A program made the position numbers and the translations under genes. From a candidate division CSSED10-310 bacterium (lineage in GTDB: Bacteria; CSSED10-310), in the NCBI GenBank assembly GCA_003558985.1, contig PWNJ01000120.1, forward strand, positions 1-56,330: a DNA stretch of 56,330 nucleotides. Reading direction: 5' to 3'. A model generated the notes under the pieces. That model was not told where the DNA came from. It saw only the letters and a list, made by a program, of their open reading frames with translations, and ran no database searches. Shown one piece after another: positions 35,486 through 48,230 of the stretch (positions are counted from its first letter, which is position 1; the number at the start of each line of letters is the position of its first letter).

Positions 35486-38400
35486 CTATAATCCGACAAG
35501 CCTGAATGCTGCCCAGCACATCGGTTCGGAATGTTCCGGTTGGTTTCGAAGTGTTTTTTGAGCATTTTGCAATGCCTGTGCCGGAGACATATTCTTCAAT
35601 ACCAGGTTTCGATAAAATTCATTCATTATCAGATAAGCGCTCTTGTCCGGAACACTCCACAAACTGCCAAGAATTCTTCGTGCGCCGGCCAGCAGAAACC
35701 CGGTAAATAAACCAATCCCTTCATCCGGCAGAAGATCAGTCTCGGCAATACCTGATTCACATGATGAAAGCACAACCAGTTCTGTCCCTGAAAGATTCAA
35801 ATCTCGCAATATGTCTGAAAGTGTCCAGACAGTTTCTTTTAACCCGGACTTTGAATAACTATCAGACTTGCCTGAACCAGACGGTTTCGAATCAGTTATT
35901 CCATGCCCGTCTGCATTTGTGAAAGTCAGCCGGGACGAATACGGATCGCCGGTATCAAACATCGCATGACAACAGAAATGCAGAATATCATATCCTGATG
36001 CGGCAGCATTGATTGCATCTGAAAGCGAATGGGTCCCGTCCAGACAATGTTTATTTTTAAACAGTGAGCTGATCGTTTCAATTTCTGTTCGAATCCATCT
36101 TAGATTTGGATCCGAATCGGAAATACCCAGAAACGACTTTTCTGATGAAGATTTCAGAGGTTTACCTGTGTTATTCACAAGCGAAAACGCAGGCAGATAG
36201 TTAATCTCAAACATATCCGCCAAATATGGTTTTTCAGGGGCGTCCAGATCACGAGCAAGATGAAATGGAAGTATATTCAATTCCTTATGCGTAACCAGAA
36301 ACAGACGCTTGACATTCAGTTTTTTCAGATATCGGATTGTTTCACTCATCAAATTTGTTGACAGGTTGTCCATAAGCGACAGCAAATCCTTGTTCCAGCG
36401 TGTGTATCTGTCAAACTGCATTTTAGAAAATTGCTGGAATTGGCTGATTGGAGGCAGTTCTTGTTGACGGTAATCATTCAATTCGGTATTCAATTGCAGA
36501 AATTGTCTGGCAATGGCGTTCAGGTGATCATACTTAAATGAATCAGCAAAGACTGTATGCACCACAGTTTGTTCGGGATTTCCCGACAGAATAACGCTAA
36601 ACGATCCGTATCGGGTTACATTGAATATGACAAAAGCGGTGTTTTCGGAATCCGGCAACAGTGTCGTCATATGATTAAATGTCACTTCGCTGGACAGAAA
36701 AGACGGCTCATATTGTCGAATCCTGTCTGAGAGGCTCTTCAAATCAGATAACGCCTTCCGCATTTCATCTGCAATCCCGGTAAAAGCACGATTCTGTATT
36801 CTGGATTGCTGTTCAGCGGTGAGTTGTCTGATTTTACTGATTAATTGTTTATATTCATCCTGATGATGTTTTTTTAAACTGTCAAAAACGATTTTATCAT
36901 AAGACATTCTGTCTTTGAATAATTGCATTTTACCAGTTTCCAGCCATTCCAGAGCTTCAGTGATGCGCCCGCATTTTGCCAGACACCAGGCGGCACGTGA
37001 ATACACCATTCCGGTTATTCTGACTCGCCGGCTTTTACTGGACAGGGTAATATCCAGCTTGCTTAACTCATTGTCTATTTTTCGAATTTCATTGAAAACA
37101 GGTATGGCGGCATTCCAGTCAGTCTGATTCATCAGTATCTCCGAGACTGCCACCAGAATCTCAAGGCGCTGACGCGGGAAATGGTCAAATGTAAATACAG
37201 ACAACGCTGCTTTCAGGTGATCAAGAGCGATGTTTTGATTGGATAAACCGGTGCCATCCGGCATATTTACCATTGCCAAAGCAAGGTTCTTGTTGATATT
37301 TGCCCACTCAATCGGTGTTGTTTTCATATTAAAAACAGTCAAAGCATTTCGGCAGTAATCAAGAACTGCCTGGATGTTTTCGTTCTTGCTGCCGATCGCA
37401 CGCTCACTATAAGCGGTAGCAAGATTAGCGTTTACTCTGGCCCAGCCAGATGGCGTTTTGTCTTTTGTGCGTATCTTCAGCGCTTCTTTGTAATGATGAA
37501 TCGCTGATTCGATACGATCAATCCCGGTTTGAGAGTTCCTGATACTGTCTTGTCTTCCCAGTTCAAGCATTGTGTTACCCAGATTTGTCTGAACCATTGC
37601 CCATTCATTCGGAAATGTCTGAATCGTAAACACCTCCAGCGATTGCTGCAGGTGCGCAACAGCAGATTCCAGATTCTCAGTGCGTTCACCCCGAATTCGT
37701 CTGGTAAACACCGTTGACATGTTAAGATGAGTTTTCGCCCGATAAACGGGGAAATCGAAATCTGAAAAGACGTCAAGAGACCTGTTATAGAATTGAATCG
37801 CCTTCTCCAGATTTTCGTTCTGATCACCCAGCGATCTTGATGAAAAAGCTATTGCCAGATTCATCAACGTGACAGCATGGTTCAACGGATGTGTATCAGC
37901 AGAATACCCTTCAAGCGCCTGCAAATAATGGTGAATAGACTGTTCGGCATTGTTAACATCCGGTGTTGCGGGAGCATTCTTCCATGCAATACCCAAATAA
38001 CTTTGAATACGAGCCCATTCAACCGGTATTAAATCGCGCCGGTATTCCTCCAAAGCCGCCTCACAACATCGGATTGCATTCACGCTGTTGGTTACAGCAT
38101 TTTTAGTCCGATTGGTCAAATGCGCGGCACACAGTTTCTGCTGCAACTCGCCCCAAAATAATGGATATCGTGAACGGTCAAGGTTTTTTATACCATTGTT
38201 CAAAAAATGAATTCTTTCATCAGCAGACAGCGGTTTTTCAGAATTTTCTATCTCTTGCAGTGTCCGGACATAAACTTCAGGAATACTTTCAAGAATACTC
38301 GGCTGCACACTATGCCCCTTGCCAAACAGGGTTGTGTCTATGCCGTTGGTAATACAGTTGTATAATAAATGTATTTTTTCAGATAATGATTGTACTTTAT

Positions 38401-38548
38401 TGAAGTCTGAAAATGCCCGCATTTCAGACCGCTCGTCAACTAATACCTGTAACAGTTTCTTATCCAGAATTTCCGGACAGGTTTTCAATAGTCTGTAACG
38501 AAGAAATACTCCGGGAGACTGAAAAAAATCCTTCAACAATGAATGCAT
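35486..38548 (-). CDS. TPR-repeat CHAT-domain (caspase/separase-like) protease
   Basis: ~46-aa TPR-like repeats (WA..Q.NLG....R..G....N.E.A); His in LHFCCHA, Cys in VLSSCESG, GSLWSVPD, WAAF. Confidence 0.88.
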   Translation of the reverse strand: MHSLLKDFFQSPGVFLRYRLLKTCPEILDKKLLQVLVDERSEMRAFSDFNKVQSLSEKIHLLYNCITNGIDTTLFGKGHSVQPSILESIPEVYVRTLQEIENSEKPLSADERIHFLNNGIKNLDRSRYPLFWGELQQKLCAAHLTNRTKNAVTNSVNAIRCCEAALEEYRRDLIPVEWARIQSYLGIAWKNAPATPDVNNAEQSIHHYLQALEGYSADTHPLNHAVTLMNLAIAFSSRSLGDQNENLEKAIQFYNRSLDVFSDFDFPVYRAKTHLNMSTVFTRRIRGERTENLESAVAHLQQSLEVFTIQTFPNEWAMVQTNLGNTMLELGRQDSIRNSQTGIDRIESAIHHYKEALKIRTKDKTPSGWARVNANLATAYSERAIGSKNENIQAVLDYCRNALTVFNMKTTPIEWANINKNLALAMVNMPDGTGLSNQNIALDHLKAALSVFTFDHFPRQRLEILVAVSEILMNQTDWNAAIPVFNEIRKIDNELSKLDITLSSKSRRVRITGMVYSRAAWCLAKCGRITEALEWLETGKMQLFKDRMSYDKIVFDSLKKHHQDEYKQLISKIRQLTAEQQSRIQNRAFTGIADEMRKALSDLKSLSDRIRQYEPSFLSSEVTFNHMTTLLPDSENTAFVIFNVTRYGSFSVILSGNPEQTVVHTVFADSFKYDHLNAIARQFLQLNTELNDYRQQELPPISQFQQFSKMQFDRYTRWNKDLLSLMDNLSTNLMSETIRYLKKLNVKRLFLVTHKELNILPFHLARDLDAPEKPYLADMFEINYLPAFSLVNNTGKPLKSSSEKSFLGISDSDPNLRWIRTEIETISSLFKNKHCLDGTHSLSDAINAAASGYDILHFCCHAMFDTGDPYSSRLTFTNADGHGITDSKPSGSGKSDSYSKSGLKETVWTLSDILRDLNLSGTELVVLSSCESGIAETDLLPDEGIGLFTGFLLAGARRILGSLWSVPDKSAYLIMNEFYRNLVLKNMSPAQALQNAQKTLRNQPEHSEPMCWAAFRLVGL

Positions 38549-38772: not shown

Positions 38773-40140
38773 ATGATGTATCGATTGAAACAATTTTTTA
38801 TTCCATTGTGGATTGTGTTATTCCTGCATGGTTTTAACGCGAACGCTGTGTATGCAGACAATTTTTGTGTGGGTCCCTACTATCCAGATGAACCCACTCC
38901 AACACCAACAGGTTCGCCGGAGCCTGACGATTACTTCGTGCTTGATTTCCCTAACAACGCAGACGACATGGTTGTAATTCCACACGATGAAAGCCTTAGT
39001 TTTGCTGGTGACAGTTTTACAATTGATTTCTGGATGTATCCCCGCACCCTCCAGGACAACTCGCTGGTCTATAAATGGGGCGAAGACCCAACGCCTGTCG
39101 ATGATGAATATCTGATACAAATGACCTCTTCAGGAGCAATAAACTTTTCTTTGAATGGCTGGGGAAATTGGTTTGCATCGACCGGAACGGTTCAGGCCGG
39201 CCGGTGGACCCATGTCGCGTGTGTATATGATGCTGATGCACAGGTGGGCACAGTCTGGCTGAACGGCATCAACGCGGGATCAGCAACACTGACGCCATTG
39301 AATTATACAACAAACGTTTCATTGCGTTTCGGTGGAATGACGCACACACTCAGCGCTTTCGACGGCTACCTTGATGAAATCCGTATTTCTGATATTATTC
39401 GGTATTCAACCCCGTTTGATCCGCCCTGTCGCCATACACCAGACGAACGCACACGCGGTTTATGGCATTGTGATGACGGCTCGGGCACATCGCTGACAGA
39501 CAGCTCAGGCAATGCCAATACCGGAACATTGCTGGGTATGACCAGTTTTTCTCCAGATCCGGAATACTGCAATCCCGATACAACACCAACCCCAACAGCC
39601 GAACCTACTGATACACCAACCTCAACCCCCACAACCGAACCATCGGCAACCCCAACGCCCGTGCCACCCACCGCGACACCTTCACCGCCACCCACGATTA
39701 CACCATCACCGACTCCGACACTTACTCCGGAAGCAACTCAAACACCAACGCATCCGCTAAAGATCACGTTGGATATGCCCAAACAGCATTATTATGCCAA
39801 TGATGAGTTCTATCTGAATTGTGAACTGTCACTGACAACGGGAACTCCGGTTGCCGGGCGTTTATTTGTCCTGTTGGAGGTTGCCGGGCTGTATTACTAT
39901 TATCCGTCCTGGCGTCGCTTTGAATGGTCTGACCTGTTTAATAAAGACAAGGATGAGTGGAGTGTGCCAATGACCGTTCTTGAAGACACAACCGAAATCG
40001 TTCTGGAGGCTTTCAAGATGCCGTTTTGGCCATTTCCAATGACCGGATGTTACTTTTTGTCAACATTTACGGATCACGAAGTAACTGTGTTGTTAAGCAA
40101 TATTGATGAAGTAGAATGGGGGTTCGGCGGCGAACCGTGA
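38773..40140 (+). CDS. Secreted protein: LamG-like jelly-roll, Pro/Thr linker and conserved C-terminal domain
   Basis: Signal peptide; FTIDFW, WTHVACVYD, FDGYLDEIRIS; PT repeats; C-terminus paralogous to 41889..44033. Confidence 0.82.
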   Translation: MMYRLKQFFIPLWIVLFLHGFNANAVYADNFCVGPYYPDEPTPTPTGSPEPDDYFVLDFPNNADDMVVIPHDESLSFAGDSFTIDFWMYPRTLQDNSLVYKWGEDPTPVDDEYLIQMTSSGAINFSLNGWGNWFASTGTVQAGRWTHVACVYDADAQVGTVWLNGINAGSATLTPLNYTTNVSLRFGGMTHTLSAFDGYLDEIRISDIIRYSTPFDPPCRHTPDERTRGLWHCDDGSGTSLTDSSGNANTGTLLGMTSFSPDPEYCNPDTTPTPTAEPTDTPTSTPTTEPSATPTPVPPTATPSPPPTITPSPTPTLTPEATQTPTHPLKITLDMPKQHYYANDEFYLNCELSLTTGTPVAGRLFVLLEVAGLYYYYPSWRRFEWSDLFNKDKDEWSVPMTVLEDTTEIVLEAFKMPFWPFPMTGCYFLSTFTDHEVTVLLSNIDEVEWGFGGEP

Positions 40141-40190
40141 TGTTTATCGCACGATAACTGAGTACAAACCGAAGAATCGTTACAACGTGT

Positions 40191-41555
40191 TTACGGTCTG
40201 ACCGGCTCAACAGGCGCGACTGCGGGTTTGACAAAGATTCGTTTTTTCCATTTGCCGGTAAAAAAGTATAGCGCCGACAAAAGCGCTCCGGCAAACCACG
40301 CAACAGGTATTCCCCACCAGATACCGTCTGTTCCAATTCTTGCCGACAGATATGCTGAAACCGGTATTCGAATCAGCCATAGAGACAGCAACGTAATGAA
40401 CATAGGAATCAAAGTGTCTCCAGCGCCGCGTAGAGCGCCATTAAAAATGAACATAATCATGAATGCAATATAGAAGCCGCCGACAATAACCAGATATTGT
40501 CTTCCGATATCAATGACAGCCTGATCATGAGTAAACAGTCGTATCAGATGATTGCTGAAAGTGATGACCAGAAATGAAATAAATGCGGCTATTGCCAGCG
40601 ACATAAGCATACCCGTTTTGATTGCTGTTCTGACCCTGTCATGTTTTCCGGCGCCGATATTCTGGCCAACAAACGTTGACATGGCCATGGACAGATTCAT
40701 CGCCGGCATCATCATGAATGAATCTATTCGGCCGGCGGCAGTGTAAGCGGCGATTGCATCAGACCCGAATTGTGTGACAATTCTAAGCAGAGCCATCATA
40801 CCCGTTGCAACAAGCATCTGCTGTGCTCCGGTCGGCAGACCGATTTTCAGACTGTTGACAAAGAGTTCTCTGTCAAACCGTAACTTAAGATAATTGACGC
40901 GAAACAGAGGATTTTTCCGATGCAGATAAACAATACCTCCAATAAAGGAAAACCCCTGGGCGATAACCGTTGCGGCCGCTGCCCCACGTATTCCCCAGCC
41001 GAACACCAGAATAAACAGCAAATCAAGGCCTATGTTCAGAAACGATGCCAGAATCAACAGATATAACGGTGTTTTGGAATCTCCCAGTCCTCGCAGAATA
41101 GCGCTGATAGCATTGTAGCCGAACAACAAAATCAGACCGCCAAACATAATATTCAGATACAGTTTTGTGTTGACATAGACATCATCCGGTATATCCAGAA
41201 TGTTTAAAATAAAGTCATTCATCAGCAATCCGATAACCGTCAGTGAAACTGAGGTTATGAACAGAAACACGTAGGCTGTTTCGATACAGAGTTTCACCTT
41301 TTCAAAGTTTTTCGCGCCGTAATTTTGTGAGATCAGAACGGTTATACCCATTGTTGCGCCTATAGTCAGCGCTATCAACAAAAACATGACCGGAAATGAC
41401 GCTCCAACAGCCGCAAGGGCTTCCTTTCCCAGAAATCGGCCAACAATAATGGAATCGGTGACATTGTATAACTGCTGAAAAACACTTCCGATAAACATCG
41501 GAATTGTAAACACCAGAATCAGCCTTGCCGGGCCGCCTTTGGTCATATCTATCAT
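40191..41555 (-). CDS. MATE family efflux transporter
   Basis: QQLYNVTDSIIVG, LRGLGDSKTPL, GQNIGAG, LRGAGDT; about 12 TM segments. Confidence 0.93.
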   Translation of the reverse strand: MIDMTKGGPARLILVFTIPMFIGSVFQQLYNVTDSIIVGRFLGKEALAAVGASFPVMFLLIALTIGATMGITVLISQNYGAKNFEKVKLCIETAYVFLFITSVSLTVIGLLMNDFILNILDIPDDVYVNTKLYLNIMFGGLILLFGYNAISAILRGLGDSKTPLYLLILASFLNIGLDLLFILVFGWGIRGAAAATVIAQGFSFIGGIVYLHRKNPLFRVNYLKLRFDRELFVNSLKIGLPTGAQQMLVATGMMALLRIVTQFGSDAIAAYTAAGRIDSFMMMPAMNLSMAMSTFVGQNIGAGKHDRVRTAIKTGMLMSLAIAAFISFLVITFSNHLIRLFTHDQAVIDIGRQYLVIVGGFYIAFMIMFIFNGALRGAGDTLIPMFITLLSLWLIRIPVSAYLSARIGTDGIWWGIPVAWFAGALLSALYFFTGKWKKRIFVKPAVAPVEPVRP

Positions 41556-41888
41556 GACGCTCCCTTTTCAGTGTGCCGAATTACAGAGCACGGAATTAAT
41601 GCATGTCTATGCTCATCCCGAAAGTGGCTTTTTCGATATATGTCAGGTGCATCGGTTTGTCAATCGCGGCGGCAGGCCTGCTGCGCAGCCGACGGGGCGA
41701 ACAGGAGAAACGGTGAAAAGGGGCGGATTTGTGAAACTGCATTCGACATGTGTCAGACTTTTTGTTATTTTAGGGTTATTGTGGTTCGGGATTTGTGCAA
41801 GAATAACATTTGTATTGATTTTTGTATCAGCAACACACGTTTTGTATTGATCCGTTATTAAGGAGTCGGATGTTATGAGGAGGATGCC

Positions 41889-44033
41889 ATGTATCAACTG
41901 AAAAATCTGTTCGTTTTTTTTATTTCAATACTAGTAGCCGGAACAGTTGCAACGTGCGTGAATGCGGAAACCTTTTTTGCAAACGAATATGAATTTGTTT
42001 CAGAATTCGGTAGTCATGGCAGTGGTCCCGGTCAGTTTGGAACAGATTTGGGCCCCAGGGGCATTATTGTCAAAGACGGCATCATTTTTGTTGGAGACTA
42101 CGGCAACCAGAGAATACAAAAGTTCACTTTGTCTGGAGAGTATATTGACCACTGGTCATCGGGATATATGGCACAACTGGCAGAAAAAGACGGGTATTTG
42201 TTTCAACTGGCGCCGACCGGCTCGATTAAAAAATGGACACTTGAGGGTCTGGAGGTGGACTCGGTAACTTTTTCAATACCGGCATGGTCAGCAGGTATGA
42301 CCATGGACAGTGACAATAATCTTCAAGTCAGTATTGCCGTGAATAAACATGTTCGAAAATACAATACGGATTTGGATTTTTTAGGTGAATATTCAGTTCC
42401 CGAAGGGTGCGGGAATGACATTCATGGTTCGGCTGACGGTCATGTTTATTTTTCAACTGAAGAACAGGAGTTTGCCAAATACGCGAATGACGGTGAAGAT
42501 ACCGAATGGCGCCGTCCCCGTAATAATACCAGCTTGCTATACATCACCAGCGGCGGTGACTTTGCCGTACGTGATAATGATTTGCAGCAAATATTGTTTT
42601 ATGATTCTGAATGGAACCTGATAACAACTCTGGGAACACCCGGTGGGGGAAACAGTCCCGGCGATTTCGGATTTATTCGTGAAATCACGCTTGATGAAAA
42701 CGGGTATTTGTATGTCTCGGACGGCAACCCCAATTACAGAATTCAGATTTTTGCTCCAGCCGGTGAGCCTTCACCAACCCCAACAGCAGAACCAAATCAG
42801 GATTGCTGGCCGGTTACAAGTCAGACTCATGCATTGTACAAATTTGAAGAGAATGCCCTGGATGCGGGTCCCAATGAATTTCATGGCACAGCACATTCAG
42901 CACTCTGGTCACAGGACAGCGCTTGTGGAGATTATGCATATCAAAATCAAAGGACTATAAGTAATTACATAGAATTACCAGCAGATGTTTTAAACACAAT
43001 TGGTTCGAGTTGGGGTATTCGGGCTCATTTAAAGTTAACCGGACATGGAAACAATGGCAACGAGTTAACATTTTTGTGCTTTAAAAGTGGCATTAATTCT
43101 CATGCGGTTTCAATTGGCGAGAGTCCGGACTGGGTTGACTGCAGTTTTCTTACTTTACTCGATAATGAACACAGTCTGTGTATTGATGGCTTGACTACCG
43201 GTGTGTATTACGTTTACGAACTCCGCTATACAAACAATGATGGCTATGCAAGGGTTTTTCTTGACAATGTTCTACAGGATGAAGTTTTTATAGGTTACAA
43301 TCCTCTGACAACACACGATACGTTATATGTTGGTAAAGGTATGTTTGGAAATGAGAATCGTCCCTGGTGGGGCAGAATAGATCATCTTGAATTTCTGGAC
43401 ATTGATGAGACATCAACACCAACCCCGACACCGACAGATACACCGTCGCCAACAGACACACCAACTCCCGAACCCACAAACACACCAATACCCTCAGATA
43501 CACCCACTCCCGAACCAACCGTGACACCAACAGCGACCAATACTCCAACACATATTCCAACCAATACTCCGACATATACGCCAACCGAAACACCGATACC
43601 ACCAACCCCGACACCCGCTCCAACCCATTCACCTACTCCGACTTATCCGATTGAGCTGGCGCTTGATATGCCTTTGGATCACTATTACAAAGATGACGAA
43701 TTCTACCTGAACTGCCATATAACCCTTCATTCTGATACTCCAGTCTCCGGCCGGTTTTTTGTGCTGATGGAGGTCAACGGCCTGTATTACTATTATCCGT
43801 CCTGGAGACAATTCAACTGGTTTGATCTTTTCGATGATAATAAAGACGAATGGAGTATATCCATGACTGTTCTGGATGATACAACGGAGATTGTTCTGGA
43901 ATCATTCAAAATGCCCTTTTTCCCGTTTTCAATGACCGGCTGTCTGTTCATGACAACGTTCACGGATAAGGATGTGACGGACTTGATTGGCAATATCGAT
44001 ATTGTAGAATGGGGTTTCGGCGGCGTACCCTGA
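41889..44033 (+). CDS. Secreted protein: NHL/beta-propeller, LamG-like domain, Pro/Thr linker and conserved C-terminal domain
   Basis: RBS GAGGAGG; signal peptide; [25 protein letters not shown]...RIQIF; ALYKFEE..WGRIDHL; long PT tract. Confidence 0.82.
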
Positions 44034-46000: not shown

Positions 46001-46837
46001 TTACAGTATTTTGTACCAGACATTCATGCTTTCTAGACTGCCGCTGATCTGAGTGTTGTTTCGCAGAGTGCCGCCATATTGATACCGGCATTTTCCAAAT
46101 GTGCAGTTCATGCCGAAACTGAGCGCTCTGGCAATCGTGTAAAGACACCGGCATCCTCCATCTCTTACAGCGCTTTCCATGTGATCCAGCAGCGCTGTTG
46201 CCAGACCGCGACCGCGGCAGGCAGGCAAAGTTGCAAAATCGGTCATTTCAGCGTGCATGGCTGCATCGTCCCGTTCGGCGGATGCAAGAGCGATCAGGTG
46301 ATTGTTTTCCCATATTCCGAAATAATCGATGTTCGTTTTCATGGTTTGTATAAGATATTCCGGTTCATGAATGGGAAACGGATACGATTCAAACACGCCA
46401 CGGTACACTCGGGCTGCATCAATCGCATCATCCGGAGTCAGTTGGCGCAACTGGCATGAATCCGGAACATTTGTTTCATTCAGATCATCGCGTTTCTCAA
46501 GCGCTTTTCGCACCACTTTCCTGACAGCAGTCTGATCAATCCGTCGTCTGCCGGGTTCAGGATAAAATGCCATAAATAAACCGGTTTCTTCACCGCGAAA
46601 CAGTCCTGGCGCCAACGCTTCAATCTCGTATCCGGCAGCCAGAAAAGGTTCCATCAGCGATACCGGTATTTTTGCAAATACTTTGCTGTATTTTTCGGAC
46701 GTTAGCAACTCCTCTGTTCTGTCCAGTATTGCATCACGATCATTCTTTGCAATTTTCATCAGATATACGCGATCGTTGGCTTTGCCGTGCTGTATCAGAC
46801 TGTTGCCAACGGTTTCAAAAACATCAAATTCAGACAT
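46001..46837 (-). CDS. ablB: Beta-lysine N-acetyltransferase (GNAT)
   Basis: HG..NDRVYLMK, VFESYPFPI, EMTDFATLP..RG.GLA, YTIARA.SFGMN, ESMNVWYK; directly downstream of the aminomutase. Confidence 0.9.
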   Translation of the reverse strand: MSEFDVFETVGNSLIQHGKANDRVYLMKIAKNDRDAILDRTEELLTSEKYSKVFAKIPVSLMEPFLAAGYEIEALAPGLFRGEETGLFMAFYPEPGRRRIDQTAVRKVVRKALEKRDDLNETNVPDSCQLRQLTPDDAIDAARVYRGVFESYPFPIHEPEYLIQTMKTNIDYFGIWENNHLIALASAERDDAAMHAEMTDFATLPACRGRGLATALLDHMESAVRDGGCRCLYTIARALSFGMNCTFGKCRYQYGGTLRNNTQISGSLESMNVWYKIL

Positions 46838-46925
46838 AGTCTATCCTCATATCGTTTCACAACCGAACACCCGATGTCTGTCTGACTGACGAATGCTCAG
46901 ATCGTTATTTTTACACATCGTTATG

Positions 46926-48230
46926 TTACCGTCTGTTTATGCGCTCGTTGTTTTCCGGAATTAGAGCAATCGCTTTGCTGTGATCAGCCAGCAACTGTGA
47001 AATACCCACTGAGCGTGTTTCTGCTGAAGAATCCAGTTTCAACTGAAGCTTGCAGGAAGCACAATTTCTGTCGCAAAACCATGCCTCATATGAATCCGGT
47101 TCCTTGTAAGTGCAAATAACGCCTTCATAATTCCGCAGCACAACTTTATTGGTTGACCACGAGATAATATAGTTCGGCATGACTGGAATTTTGCCGCCAC
47201 CACCGGGCGCATCAATAACATACGTCGGGACAGCCAGTCCGCTGGTATGACCGATCAGATTTTCAAGGATTTCAATGCCCTTTCCAACAGGCGTTCGAAA
47301 ATGACCAAGTCCCTCCGACAAATCACACTGATACAGATAATAAGGACGCACTCTGTTTTTAACCAGTTTATGCACCAGCGCTTTCATAATTCGGGGACAA
47401 TCATTTACACCAGCCAGCAACACAGACTGGTTACCCAATGGAATGCCTGCATTAGCCAGTCTTGCCAACGCCTTTTCGGATGACTGGGTAAACTCACGCG
47501 GATGATTGAAATGAGTGTTGATCCACAGTGGATGATATTTTTTCAGGACATTAACCAGGTCTTCCGTAATACGGTATGGCAAAACCACAGGCATACGTGT
47601 GCCGATACGGATTATTTCAACATGGGGTATCTCTCTGATTTTACCAAGCAGCCAGTCCAGCCGCTTGTCAGATAACATCAGCGGATCACCACCGGATACA
47701 AGGACGTCCCGAATGACCGGATTCGCCCTGATGTATTCAATCCCTTTCATCATATCTTCTTTTTCCGGAATGAAATCAACATCACCGACCTTGCGTTTCC
47801 GGGTGCAGTGTCTGCAATACATCGAACAATAATTACTGACAAGAAACAATACGCGGTCAGGATATCTGTGTGTTATACCGGTCACCGGACTGTCGGCATC
47901 TTCCGATAGTGGATCAATCATATCGCATCGCGATACATCCATTTCATGCACTGACGGAAATGCCTGCCGCCAAACCGGATCATTGTCCCTGTCTTCCGGA
48001 TGAATCAGCGATAAATAATACGGTGTTATCGCCATCGGAAACATTTCAAGGGTTTTCTCAAGTTCCCGGCGTTCTGTTTCTGAAAATTTAACACCGAGCA
48101 ACTCTTCAAAATCATCTATTTTATGAATGTTATGACTCAACTGCCATCGCCAGTCAAACCATTTTTCGTGCGTTTCATCCGACCGTTTCCAGTCATCCAG
48201 TTTTTTAGGTTTATCTGTAATAACAATCAT
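46926..48230 (-). CDS. ablA: Lysine 2,3-aminomutase (radical SAM/PLP)
   Basis: [20 protein letters not shown] (CxxxCxxC), [14 protein letters not shown] (PLP Lys), C-terminal CDRNCASC. Confidence 0.95.

Follow-up and report, generated by a model that had tools for sequence, protein, structure and literature searches.

Two genes in a stretch of 56,330 nucleotides from a candidate division CSSED10-310 bacterium (contig PWNJ01000120.1 of assembly GCA_003558985.1; this whole stretch is hereafter the window) encode proteins whose bodies differ but whose ends are alike, both closing with a domain of 129 amino acids (aa) behind a stalk rich in proline and threonine. The locus raises the question of what kind of module is shared in this way, and what it does for the proteins that bear it. 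The original prediction, made from the sequence alone, proposed a lineage-specific tag for docking at the cell surface or for export. What we observe is a protein domain family, its size, its terminal position on the chain, its passengers, its fold class and its restriction to one lineage. The explanation that we favour, at a probability of roughly 45%, is that the domain is a previously undescribed, phylum-restricted family of Ig-like beta-sandwiches of about 110–125 residues, which would act as a terminal docking (anchoring) unit at the cell surface.

The domain is widespread in the window's own genome (G000; 2.79 Mb in 259 contigs, 60% complete). An iterated hidden Markov model (HMM), seeded with the two window copies and run on all 6599 stop-to-stop open reading frames (ORFs) of at least 90 aa, went from 13 to 79 to 81 ORFs and was then stable at 81 of the 6599, each with a single copy of the domain. 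These carriers make up about 3.5% of some 2293 crude genes. A profile search with an alignment of 78 sequences matched 83–84 places in the same genome, and tblastn with the two copies returned dozens of full-length matches at 21–33% identity. The possibility, raised beforehand, that only these two copies exist as the result of a simple duplication is thus set aside.

When considering position, 67 of the 81 copies end at most eight residues from the stop codon, another 11 are N-terminal and three are internal; the N-terminal copies begin two to four residues past the predicted signal-peptide cleavage site (for instance ...PVLA/EDIHLE...). A metagenomic set of 152 proteins (the 150 best of 2702 cluster representatives and two cluster members) gave 155 domain hits, with 147 C-terminal, four N-terminal and four internal, and two of these proteins have more than one copy. 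Within this set, P0003 (440 aa) has two partial copies and one full copy, and in P0004 (1147 aa), which belongs to the FGE family, one copy is internal and the other C-terminal. A signal-peptide-like start is predicted for 64 of the 67 carrier ORFs with a complete 5′ end, compared to 687 of 1776 background ORFs under the same heuristic; the enrichment is clear although the heuristic is loose, with a background rate of 39%. The genome-wide count of C-terminal hits on signal-peptide proteins that had been suggested as a check on the tag thus came out in its favour. Additionally, 33 of 64 C-terminal copies are preceded by a 40-aa stretch with at least 40% proline plus threonine.

The proteins that carry the domain have little else in common. 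Pfam applied to the 79 carrier ORFs outside the window identified 12 peptidases (five S8, three C1, one C25, one M28, one M6 and one trypsin-like), several kinds of propeller (Kelch, FG-GAP, PQQ and regulator propellers), ten FGE-sulfatase proteins, three cohesin proteins and one dockerin protein, as well as beta-helix, PMP-repeat, PLD, metallophosphatase, endonuclease/phosphatase, transglutaminase and AhpC/redoxin passengers, and carriers in related genomes add GH18, VWA and transglutaminase. No Pfam family was found in 36 of the 79, and in none of the 79 does a family cover the shared domain. Over 20 unrelated Pfam passenger families are joined to it, which argues that the domain has been shuffled repeatedly and retained. 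Nine of the 11 N-terminal copies stand before an FGE-sulfatase domain. In the FGE-sulfatase proteins of this genome, some with two or three FGE domains per chain, the targeting module is always N-terminal, being either a dockerin (L098, C257:1777-2961) or the new domain (nine ORFs: L011, L018, L022, L027, L028, L034, L040, L042 and L052).

How far the family extends was examined at several thresholds. At E<=0.001 the profile matched 12 of 41 genomes, namely the window's own, all five from its family, all four others from its order, one of four others from its phylum and one of 27 from other phyla, this last match being marginal (E 5e-4). At E<=1e-5, 11 of 14 genomes of the phylum are positive, with 58–106 matches each and three with at least 150 (261–298 candidates), while the other three have no match; the domain spans four families of the phylum. 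A search of 401 genomes found the same 11 positive and no others, and since it required E<=1e-30 and scored 11 candidates per genome, it speaks for strong members only and would hide weak relatives elsewhere. Of 1.84 billion cluster representatives, the profile matches 2702 at E<=1e-3, a number that falls to 2297 at E<=1e-10; an organism name was attached to four of 20 relatives checked, and all four read “candidate division CSSED10-310 bacterium”. The domain thus appears, from these searches, to be restricted to one rare uncultured phylum and essentially absent outside it. Members of CSSED10-310 have been predicted to live as Gram-negative, anaerobic heterotrophs in the available portion of a paper devoted to the phylum, and that portion does not mention the domain (PMC8248873). 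We also found no description of the module in literature searches on sorting domains and on cohesin and dockerin in candidate phyla, supplements aside. Omp85 was found in all 14 genomes of the phylum and secretins in five of five, and the cells are therefore diderm.

BLASTP of the two window copies gives 88 of 129 residues identical and 109 positive with no gaps (E 8e-71), exactly the identity that had been estimated by eye, and the shared motifs (51 protein letters, not shown) and the two conserved cysteines (C24 and C100 of the 129-aa stretch) noted at that time are present in the translations and in invariant columns. Both copies stop one residue short of the stop codon of their ORF, and the proteins end ...EWGFGGEP and ...EWGFGGVP, with no hydrophobic helix. 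At the DNA level 270 of 387 positions are identical, with third codon positions identical in 58 of 129 cases, a nonsynonymous divergence (dN) of ~0.23 and a synonymous divergence (dS) of ~2, which is saturated. The low third-position identity and the low dN against a saturated dS therefore point to an old duplication kept by purifying selection, and to neither a recent repeat nor an artefact of assembly. On a neighbour-joining tree of the members, made with Biopython and without support values so that its clade statements are weak, the two copies are each other's nearest relatives on a long branch, and they are thus probably divergent members of the family. A large subfamily has one cysteine a few residues upstream of the domain and a second in a GDxC turn, which suggests a disulfide between them. 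The features of the two genes are as follows.

38773..40140, plus strand: gene 1, 455 aa, with signal peptide, Laminin_G_3 passenger, Pro/Thr linker and terminal domain (ORF, Pfam and domain HMM).
38773..38856, plus strand: signal peptide predicted for gene 1, roughly aa 1-28, with ...NAVYA at its end (our own h-region heuristic, score 2.8).
38959..39393, plus strand: Laminin_G_3 (ConA-like lectin) passenger of gene 1, aa 63-207 (Pfam PF13385, E 4.2e-21, 76.1 bits against a cut-off of 27.6).
39577..39750, plus strand: Pro/Thr-rich linker of gene 1, borders approximate (aa 255-336 are covered by 30-aa windows in which P/T/S make up 60% or more).
39751..40137, plus strand: terminal domain copy 1, 129 aa as first delimited, with the HMM core at aa 333-451 (BLASTP, HMM and AlphaFold model).
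41889..44033, plus strand: gene 2, 714 aa, with signal peptide, NHL-repeat region, unassigned middle, Pro/Thr linker and terminal domain (ORF, Pfam and domain HMM).
41889..41966, plus strand: signal peptide predicted for gene 2, roughly aa 1-26, with ...CVNA at its end (our own h-region heuristic, score 3.3).
41976..42770, plus strand: NHL-repeat (beta-propeller-like) passenger of gene 2, approximate (Pfam NHL, two stretches, E 3.7e-8).
42777..43403, plus strand: middle region of gene 2 without family assignment, at first read as LamG (Pfam and BLASTP).
43407..43643, plus strand: Pro/Thr-rich linker of gene 2, borders approximate (P/T/S-rich windows span aa 498-595).
43644..44030, plus strand: terminal domain copy 2, 129 aa (BLASTP and HMM).

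The domain HMM matches gene 1 at aa 333-451 (independent E value 8.9e-27) and gene 2 at aa 592-710 (7.5e-27). Most of the architecture first proposed for the two proteins is recovered, including the hydrophobic, signal-peptide-like N terminus of both ORFs, the Pro/Thr stalks before the domain and the LamG passenger of the first protein. The NHL plus LamG assignment of the second holds for its NHL part, where NCBIfam adds NHL-type partial matches at aa 30-86 and 233-294 that are far under their cut-offs. Its LamG part is not supported: Pfam is silent on LamG at E<=1 for the whole protein and gives no match to any family at E<=10 for aa 297-504 alone, and BLASTP of the middle region against the LamG region of gene 1 gives E 0.81. 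A single homologue of this middle region was found.

Other genes stand close by in the window. Directly upstream of gene 1 and on the opposite strand is a protein of 1020 aa that combines TPR repeats with a C-terminal CHAT (caspase-like) domain (35486-38548, minus strand; E 7.4e-48), and between the two paralogues, again on the opposite strand, is a MATE-family efflux protein (40191-41555, minus strand; MatE E 1.5e-67). Further along, 46001-48230 on the minus strand encodes a lysine 2,3-aminomutase (LAM_C E 8e-43, radical SAM) and then a GNAT acetyltransferase, a pair of the kind that is known to make the osmolyte N-epsilon-acetyl-beta-lysine.

Neither window copy gives anything above cut-off in Pfam-A or NCBIfam 20.0; copy 1 reaches 18.1 bits against the 23.1 cut-off of MG3, for which copy 2 gives nothing. 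When each of 78 members was scanned at E<=1, six NCBIfam and 16 Pfam families were touched in all, none by more than two members, and a profile search of all PDB sequences gave no matches at E<=10. The precomputed Pfam column of a newer release is blank for the strong carriers P0173, P0180, P0160, P0166 and P0172; PF27052, which is listed for P0182, was considered as the family of the domain and rejected, being absent from those same five. Relatives are annotated at source as “hypothetical protein” or with a name based on the passenger. The initial impression that the domain matches no known motif thus stands, and the alternative that it is a described family found at any position does not, given the lack of a Pfam, NCBIfam or solved-structure sequence match and the terminal placement of 78 of this genome's 81 copies and of 151 of the 155 metagenomic hits.

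The fold is less distinctive. An AlphaFold2 model of window copy 1 (39763-40137, 125 aa, built with the 78-sequence alignment) has a mean predicted local distance difference test score (pLDDT) of 92.8 and a predicted template modelling (TM) score of 0.83, and has eight strands, of which strands 4 and 5 are separated by two short helices. Foldseek against the PDB gives one match at E<=1e-3, the GM2 activator (E 4.8e-4), and we rejected the lipid-binding reading that it might invite, the TM score being 0.37 and the root-mean-square deviation 10 Å. It also lists the CARDB domain 3idu (TM 0.51, E 2e-3) and the macroglobulin domains of complement C3 (TM ~0.5). VIA-align, run against 48,161 chains, lists three matches at Z>=8, all N-terminal Ig-like domains of GH66 dextranases and CITase (Z 9.2, 8.8 and 8.1), then the Vibrio matrix protein RbmA (Z 8.0) and a long series of further Ig-like domains at around Z 7; the Wzt carbohydrate-binding domain 6o14 (Z 7.3) and a porphyran-binding carbohydrate-binding module (CBM; 8wae, Z 7.0) are among its matches, and by the method's own note such scores are common among unrelated sandwiches and no proof of relationship. 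The model thus looks like a generic beta-sandwich of the Ig-like, CARDB or macroglobulin type. CARDB (PF07705) and the macroglobulin (MG) families are the nearest by shape and share a faint sequence signal with it, but CARDB matches one of 78 members at E 0.15, below its gathering score, and shares the fold class only, MG3 (PF17791) stays under its cut-off as described above, MG4 (PF17789) matches two of 78 with a best E of 0.039, and unlike the new domain all of these occur internally and in tandem. We conclude that the family is new by sequence and ordinary by fold.

SLH domains and dockerins anchor proteins non-covalently in other systems. In the explanation that we favour, Sec-exported proteins of unrelated activities would carry one module at a free chain end, usually behind a Pro/Thr stalk, and the module would keep them at the envelope through non-covalent attachment to one shared envelope component or receptor; the window pair would then be a case of such display, one protein being lectin-like with LamG and the other a propeller with NHL repeats. 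Here the surface location, the binding and the nature of the partner are what we infer. That the module is tolerated at either free end and hardly ever inside the chain fits docking rather than a strictly C-terminal export signal. The proposed role would be that of SLH (PF00395), a non-covalent envelope anchor at the N or C terminus common to many exoproteins, but SLH is helical and usually present in three tandem copies, whereas the new domain is a single beta-sandwich per protein with no SLH match in the Pfam scans. Dockerin type I is likewise present once, at a chain end (the C terminus mostly, the N terminus at times), and set off by linkers on many unrelated secreted proteins, and in the window's own genome it takes the same positions on the same kinds of passenger. 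A dockerin is, however, a calcium-binding helical module of ~60 aa, while the new domain, of ~110 aa, is modelled as all-beta apart from its two short helices, has no PF00404 match and no known cohesin-like receptor, and is itself carried by cohesin proteins. The domain resembles the C-terminal domain (CTD) of type IX secretion system (T9SS) substrates, dockerin and SLH in the way it is used.

The comparison with dockerins is of particular relevance here as the same genome holds 44 dockerin (PF00404) and 15 cohesin matches, a large cohesin–dockerin network in a diderm organism that seems not to be cellulolytic. Dockerins are C-terminal on M14 peptidases and on Kelch proteins and N-terminal on an FGE-sulfatase protein, and homologues of the window's LamG passenger elsewhere bear a dockerin instead of the new domain (precomputed Pfam). 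Three ORFs on contig C17 (C17:1-11127) have the order cohesin, PT linker, new domain, and complete frames in relatives have the same order (G002:C35, 1907 aa with two cohesins; G005:C2, 508 aa; G004:C3, 1072 aa). Cohesin–linker–anchor is the layout of the anchoring scaffoldins of Clostridium thermocellum, and the cohesin proteins with the new module have this layout, the module taking the place that an SLH domain or a sortase signal has in clostridia. Within the phylum the dockerin expansion (16–42 per genome) is confined to the window's family, whereas the new domain occurs in four families and the two genomes richest in it are without dockerin; it is therefore the more general of the two systems and independent of cohesin. 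Multi-cohesin ORFs on C183:1-5297, C12:2-2230 and C199:3-1442 are cut at their 3′ side by contig ends, which leaves their own anchors out of view. Secretin ORFs of 771 and 791 aa show a cohesin-like match just C-terminal of the secretin domain in the same frame (G002:C26:161440-162528, plus strand; G004:C16:59661-60659, minus strand; G005:C6:161094-161441); a secretin able to bind dockerin proteins would be unusual.

Several observations weigh against docking at the surface. The parallel with dockerin is an analogy only, as L049 carries both modules and the two genomes with the most copies of the domain (G007 and G009) have no dockerins at all. The N-terminal copies, which speak for a module usable at either end, mostly fall together, with ten of the 11 in one unsupported clade along with two C-terminal copies, so that the shifts in position were probably few events. 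The modelled fold, with a best VIA-align Z of 9.2 and a best Foldseek TM of ~0.5, is generic and uninformative on function. Surface exposure is putative, since in a diderm cell a signal peptide alone reaches only the periplasm. Lastly, no partner, scaffold, envelope ligand or translocon was found in the neighbourhoods of the 81 genes or in two clusters in relatives, so that the co-occurring scaffold or translocon which the original prediction had proposed to look for did not emerge from them.

What these neighbourhoods do contain is more passengers, along with sulfatases, radical-SAM enzymes, glycosyltransferases and transporters. In the 247 ORFs that neighbour the 81 genes, B12-radical-SAM, sulfatase, dockerin, GT2, FGE-sulfatase and C25 proteins recur, and the two clusters in relatives (L100 and L101) hold only additional passengers as well as transporters. 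Six B12-binding radical-SAM paralogues are encoded at most three genes away from carriers (C121:25313-28325, C123:13879-15408, C128:23912-25483, C5:4442-5929 and C80:4617-6062), a closeness that may only reflect the large size of their family. In L101 (G004:C12:228000-240000) a multihaem cytochrome with MtrC/MtrF-like domains has a Temptin_C-domain protein on either side, and these two proteins sit where two copies of the domain map (G004:C12:232090-232419 and 236371-236709).

The docking module has to be weighed against three other accounts of the same observations. One is that the domain is an export signal, read by an outer-membrane translocon of the phylum and perhaps cleaved after transport, much as the T9SS CTD is. 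The resemblance to that domain (TIGR04183, or Por_Secre_tail PF18962) is extensive: both are Ig-like beta-sandwiches of about 100–110 aa at the very C-terminal end of proteins with a signal peptide (here in 67 of 81 copies, and in 147 of 155 metagenomic hits), both have tens to hundreds of carriers per genome, the passengers are in each case rich in proteases, adhesins and beta-helices (here S8, C25 and C1 peptidases, beta-helices and propellers), and both are restricted to one lineage. Diderm organisms moreover need some route across the outer membrane, and two peptidases of the C25 (PorU/gingipain) family are found among or beside the carriers. A C-terminal signal would, however, not allow the 11 N-terminal and three internal copies, neither TIGR04183 nor PF18962 matches the window proteins or any of 78 members at E<=1, and the phylum is a different one. 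PorV (PF19572) gave no match in the window's own genome or in five others of the phylum (four with a completeness of 90% or more and a contamination of 5% or less, and one with 96% and 6%, respectively), with the positive control Bacteroides thetaiotaomicron detected, and there is no candidate translocon beside the carrier genes examined. No T9SS CTD chain is among the structural neighbours listed, though such a chain may still be similar. We consider an export signal unlikely on balance, but a serious rival. Other lineage-restricted tags found on many signal-peptide proteins, the tripartite C-terminal signals (LPXTG/sortase, PEP-CTERM/exosortase, GlyGly-CTERM/rhombosortase and MYXO-CTERM), differ in consisting of a motif, a transmembrane helix and a basic tail in ~25–40 aa, whereas the new domain is globular and without a hydrophobic helix. 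Such signals were found, according to the available portions of two reports, by counting a shared C-terminal homology region (PMC1569441; bioRxiv 10.1101/2023.06.07.544157).

Binding to something other than the envelope would also explain a single terminal copy behind a PT linker, as is seen in many CBM-bearing enzymes, and the domain might thus be a CBM-like or matrix-binding module that targets enzymes to an external polymer or to the cells' own biofilm matrix. A beta-sandwich of this size is typical of CBMs, the conserved positions are rich in aromatic residues (YGxxWFxPSW and FxWP), sulfatases and glycosyltransferases recur as neighbours, and the structural neighbours include the GH66 dextranase N-domains, RbmA, the Wzt domain and the porphyran-binding CBM. 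Their Z scores (9.2 down to 7.0) are, however, in the range common for unrelated sandwiches, and no CBM family matches by sequence. Most passengers, for instance the 12 peptidases, redoxin, PLD, phosphatases, cohesins and ligand-binding lectins, are not carbohydrate-active, and so strict a lineage restriction would be unusual for a module aimed at a widespread substrate; we think this account unlikely too, but likewise a serious rival. Least probable in our view is that the domain has no targeting role, and is an Ig-like end-cap or spacer that lends stability, or a module for self-association, spread by duplication and domain shuffling within one lineage. The generic fold would suit this, as would the many carriers that are paralogues of one another (for instance the FGE-sulfatase clade and the cohesin clade on C17) and the rare proteins with two or three copies (P0003 and P0004), but spacer Ig domains are normally internal and in tandem, while here there is one copy in 81 of 81 carriers and a terminal position in 78. 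The more than 20 unrelated passenger families, with the repeated shuffling and retention that they imply, and the purifying selection on the window pair also argue against it. The docking module thus remains the explanation that we favour, and of the original proposal the lineage restriction and the terminal tag on secreted proteins are borne out, while surface location and function stay a matter of inference.

Genomes of the phylum without the domain offer a view of what may stand in its place. One of them has a homologue of an S8 peptidase passenger (L112; G012:C397:23864-27145, minus strand) with 46% identity over residues 37-471, the catalytic part, followed by a P-domain, a Pro/Thr/Ser linker of more than 130 aa, and then a hydrophobic helix and an RRRE end. 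The tail region recurs in four ORFs of that genome (L112 and three further), and this one example suggests a membrane-anchor-type C-terminal signal, possibly of the CTERM type, in the position of the new domain. Taking this together with the rest, we tentatively put forward a wider picture, which is possible though short of likely: the domain may be the substrate mark of an undescribed sorting or surface-attachment system peculiar to CSSED10-310, serving some 2–4% of its proteins, including the anchoring scaffoldins of a non-cellulolytic cohesin–dockerin network, with a receptor or translocon still unrecognised, and replaced in other branches by membrane-anchor-type C-terminal signals.

Shared terminal tags have been informative before: LPXTG, PEP-CTERM and the T9SS CTD were each the way to a dedicated sorting machine that was then discovered. 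The present module, as yet unnamed, marks at least 81 proteins in a genome that is 60% complete, and in the ten relatives the number per genome runs from 58 to at least 150; these proteins are the bulk of the predicted exoproteome in a phylum known only from metagenomes. Defining the family would give an annotation for ~2700 protein clusters now called “hypothetical” and a marker of the secreted proteome in these organisms, and the contrast of 11 positive with three negative genomes would be a handle on the envelope receptor or translocon by phylogenetic profiling. Also shown is a cohesin–dockerin network in a diderm and outside cellulosomes, for which the candidate anchor is of a new kind.

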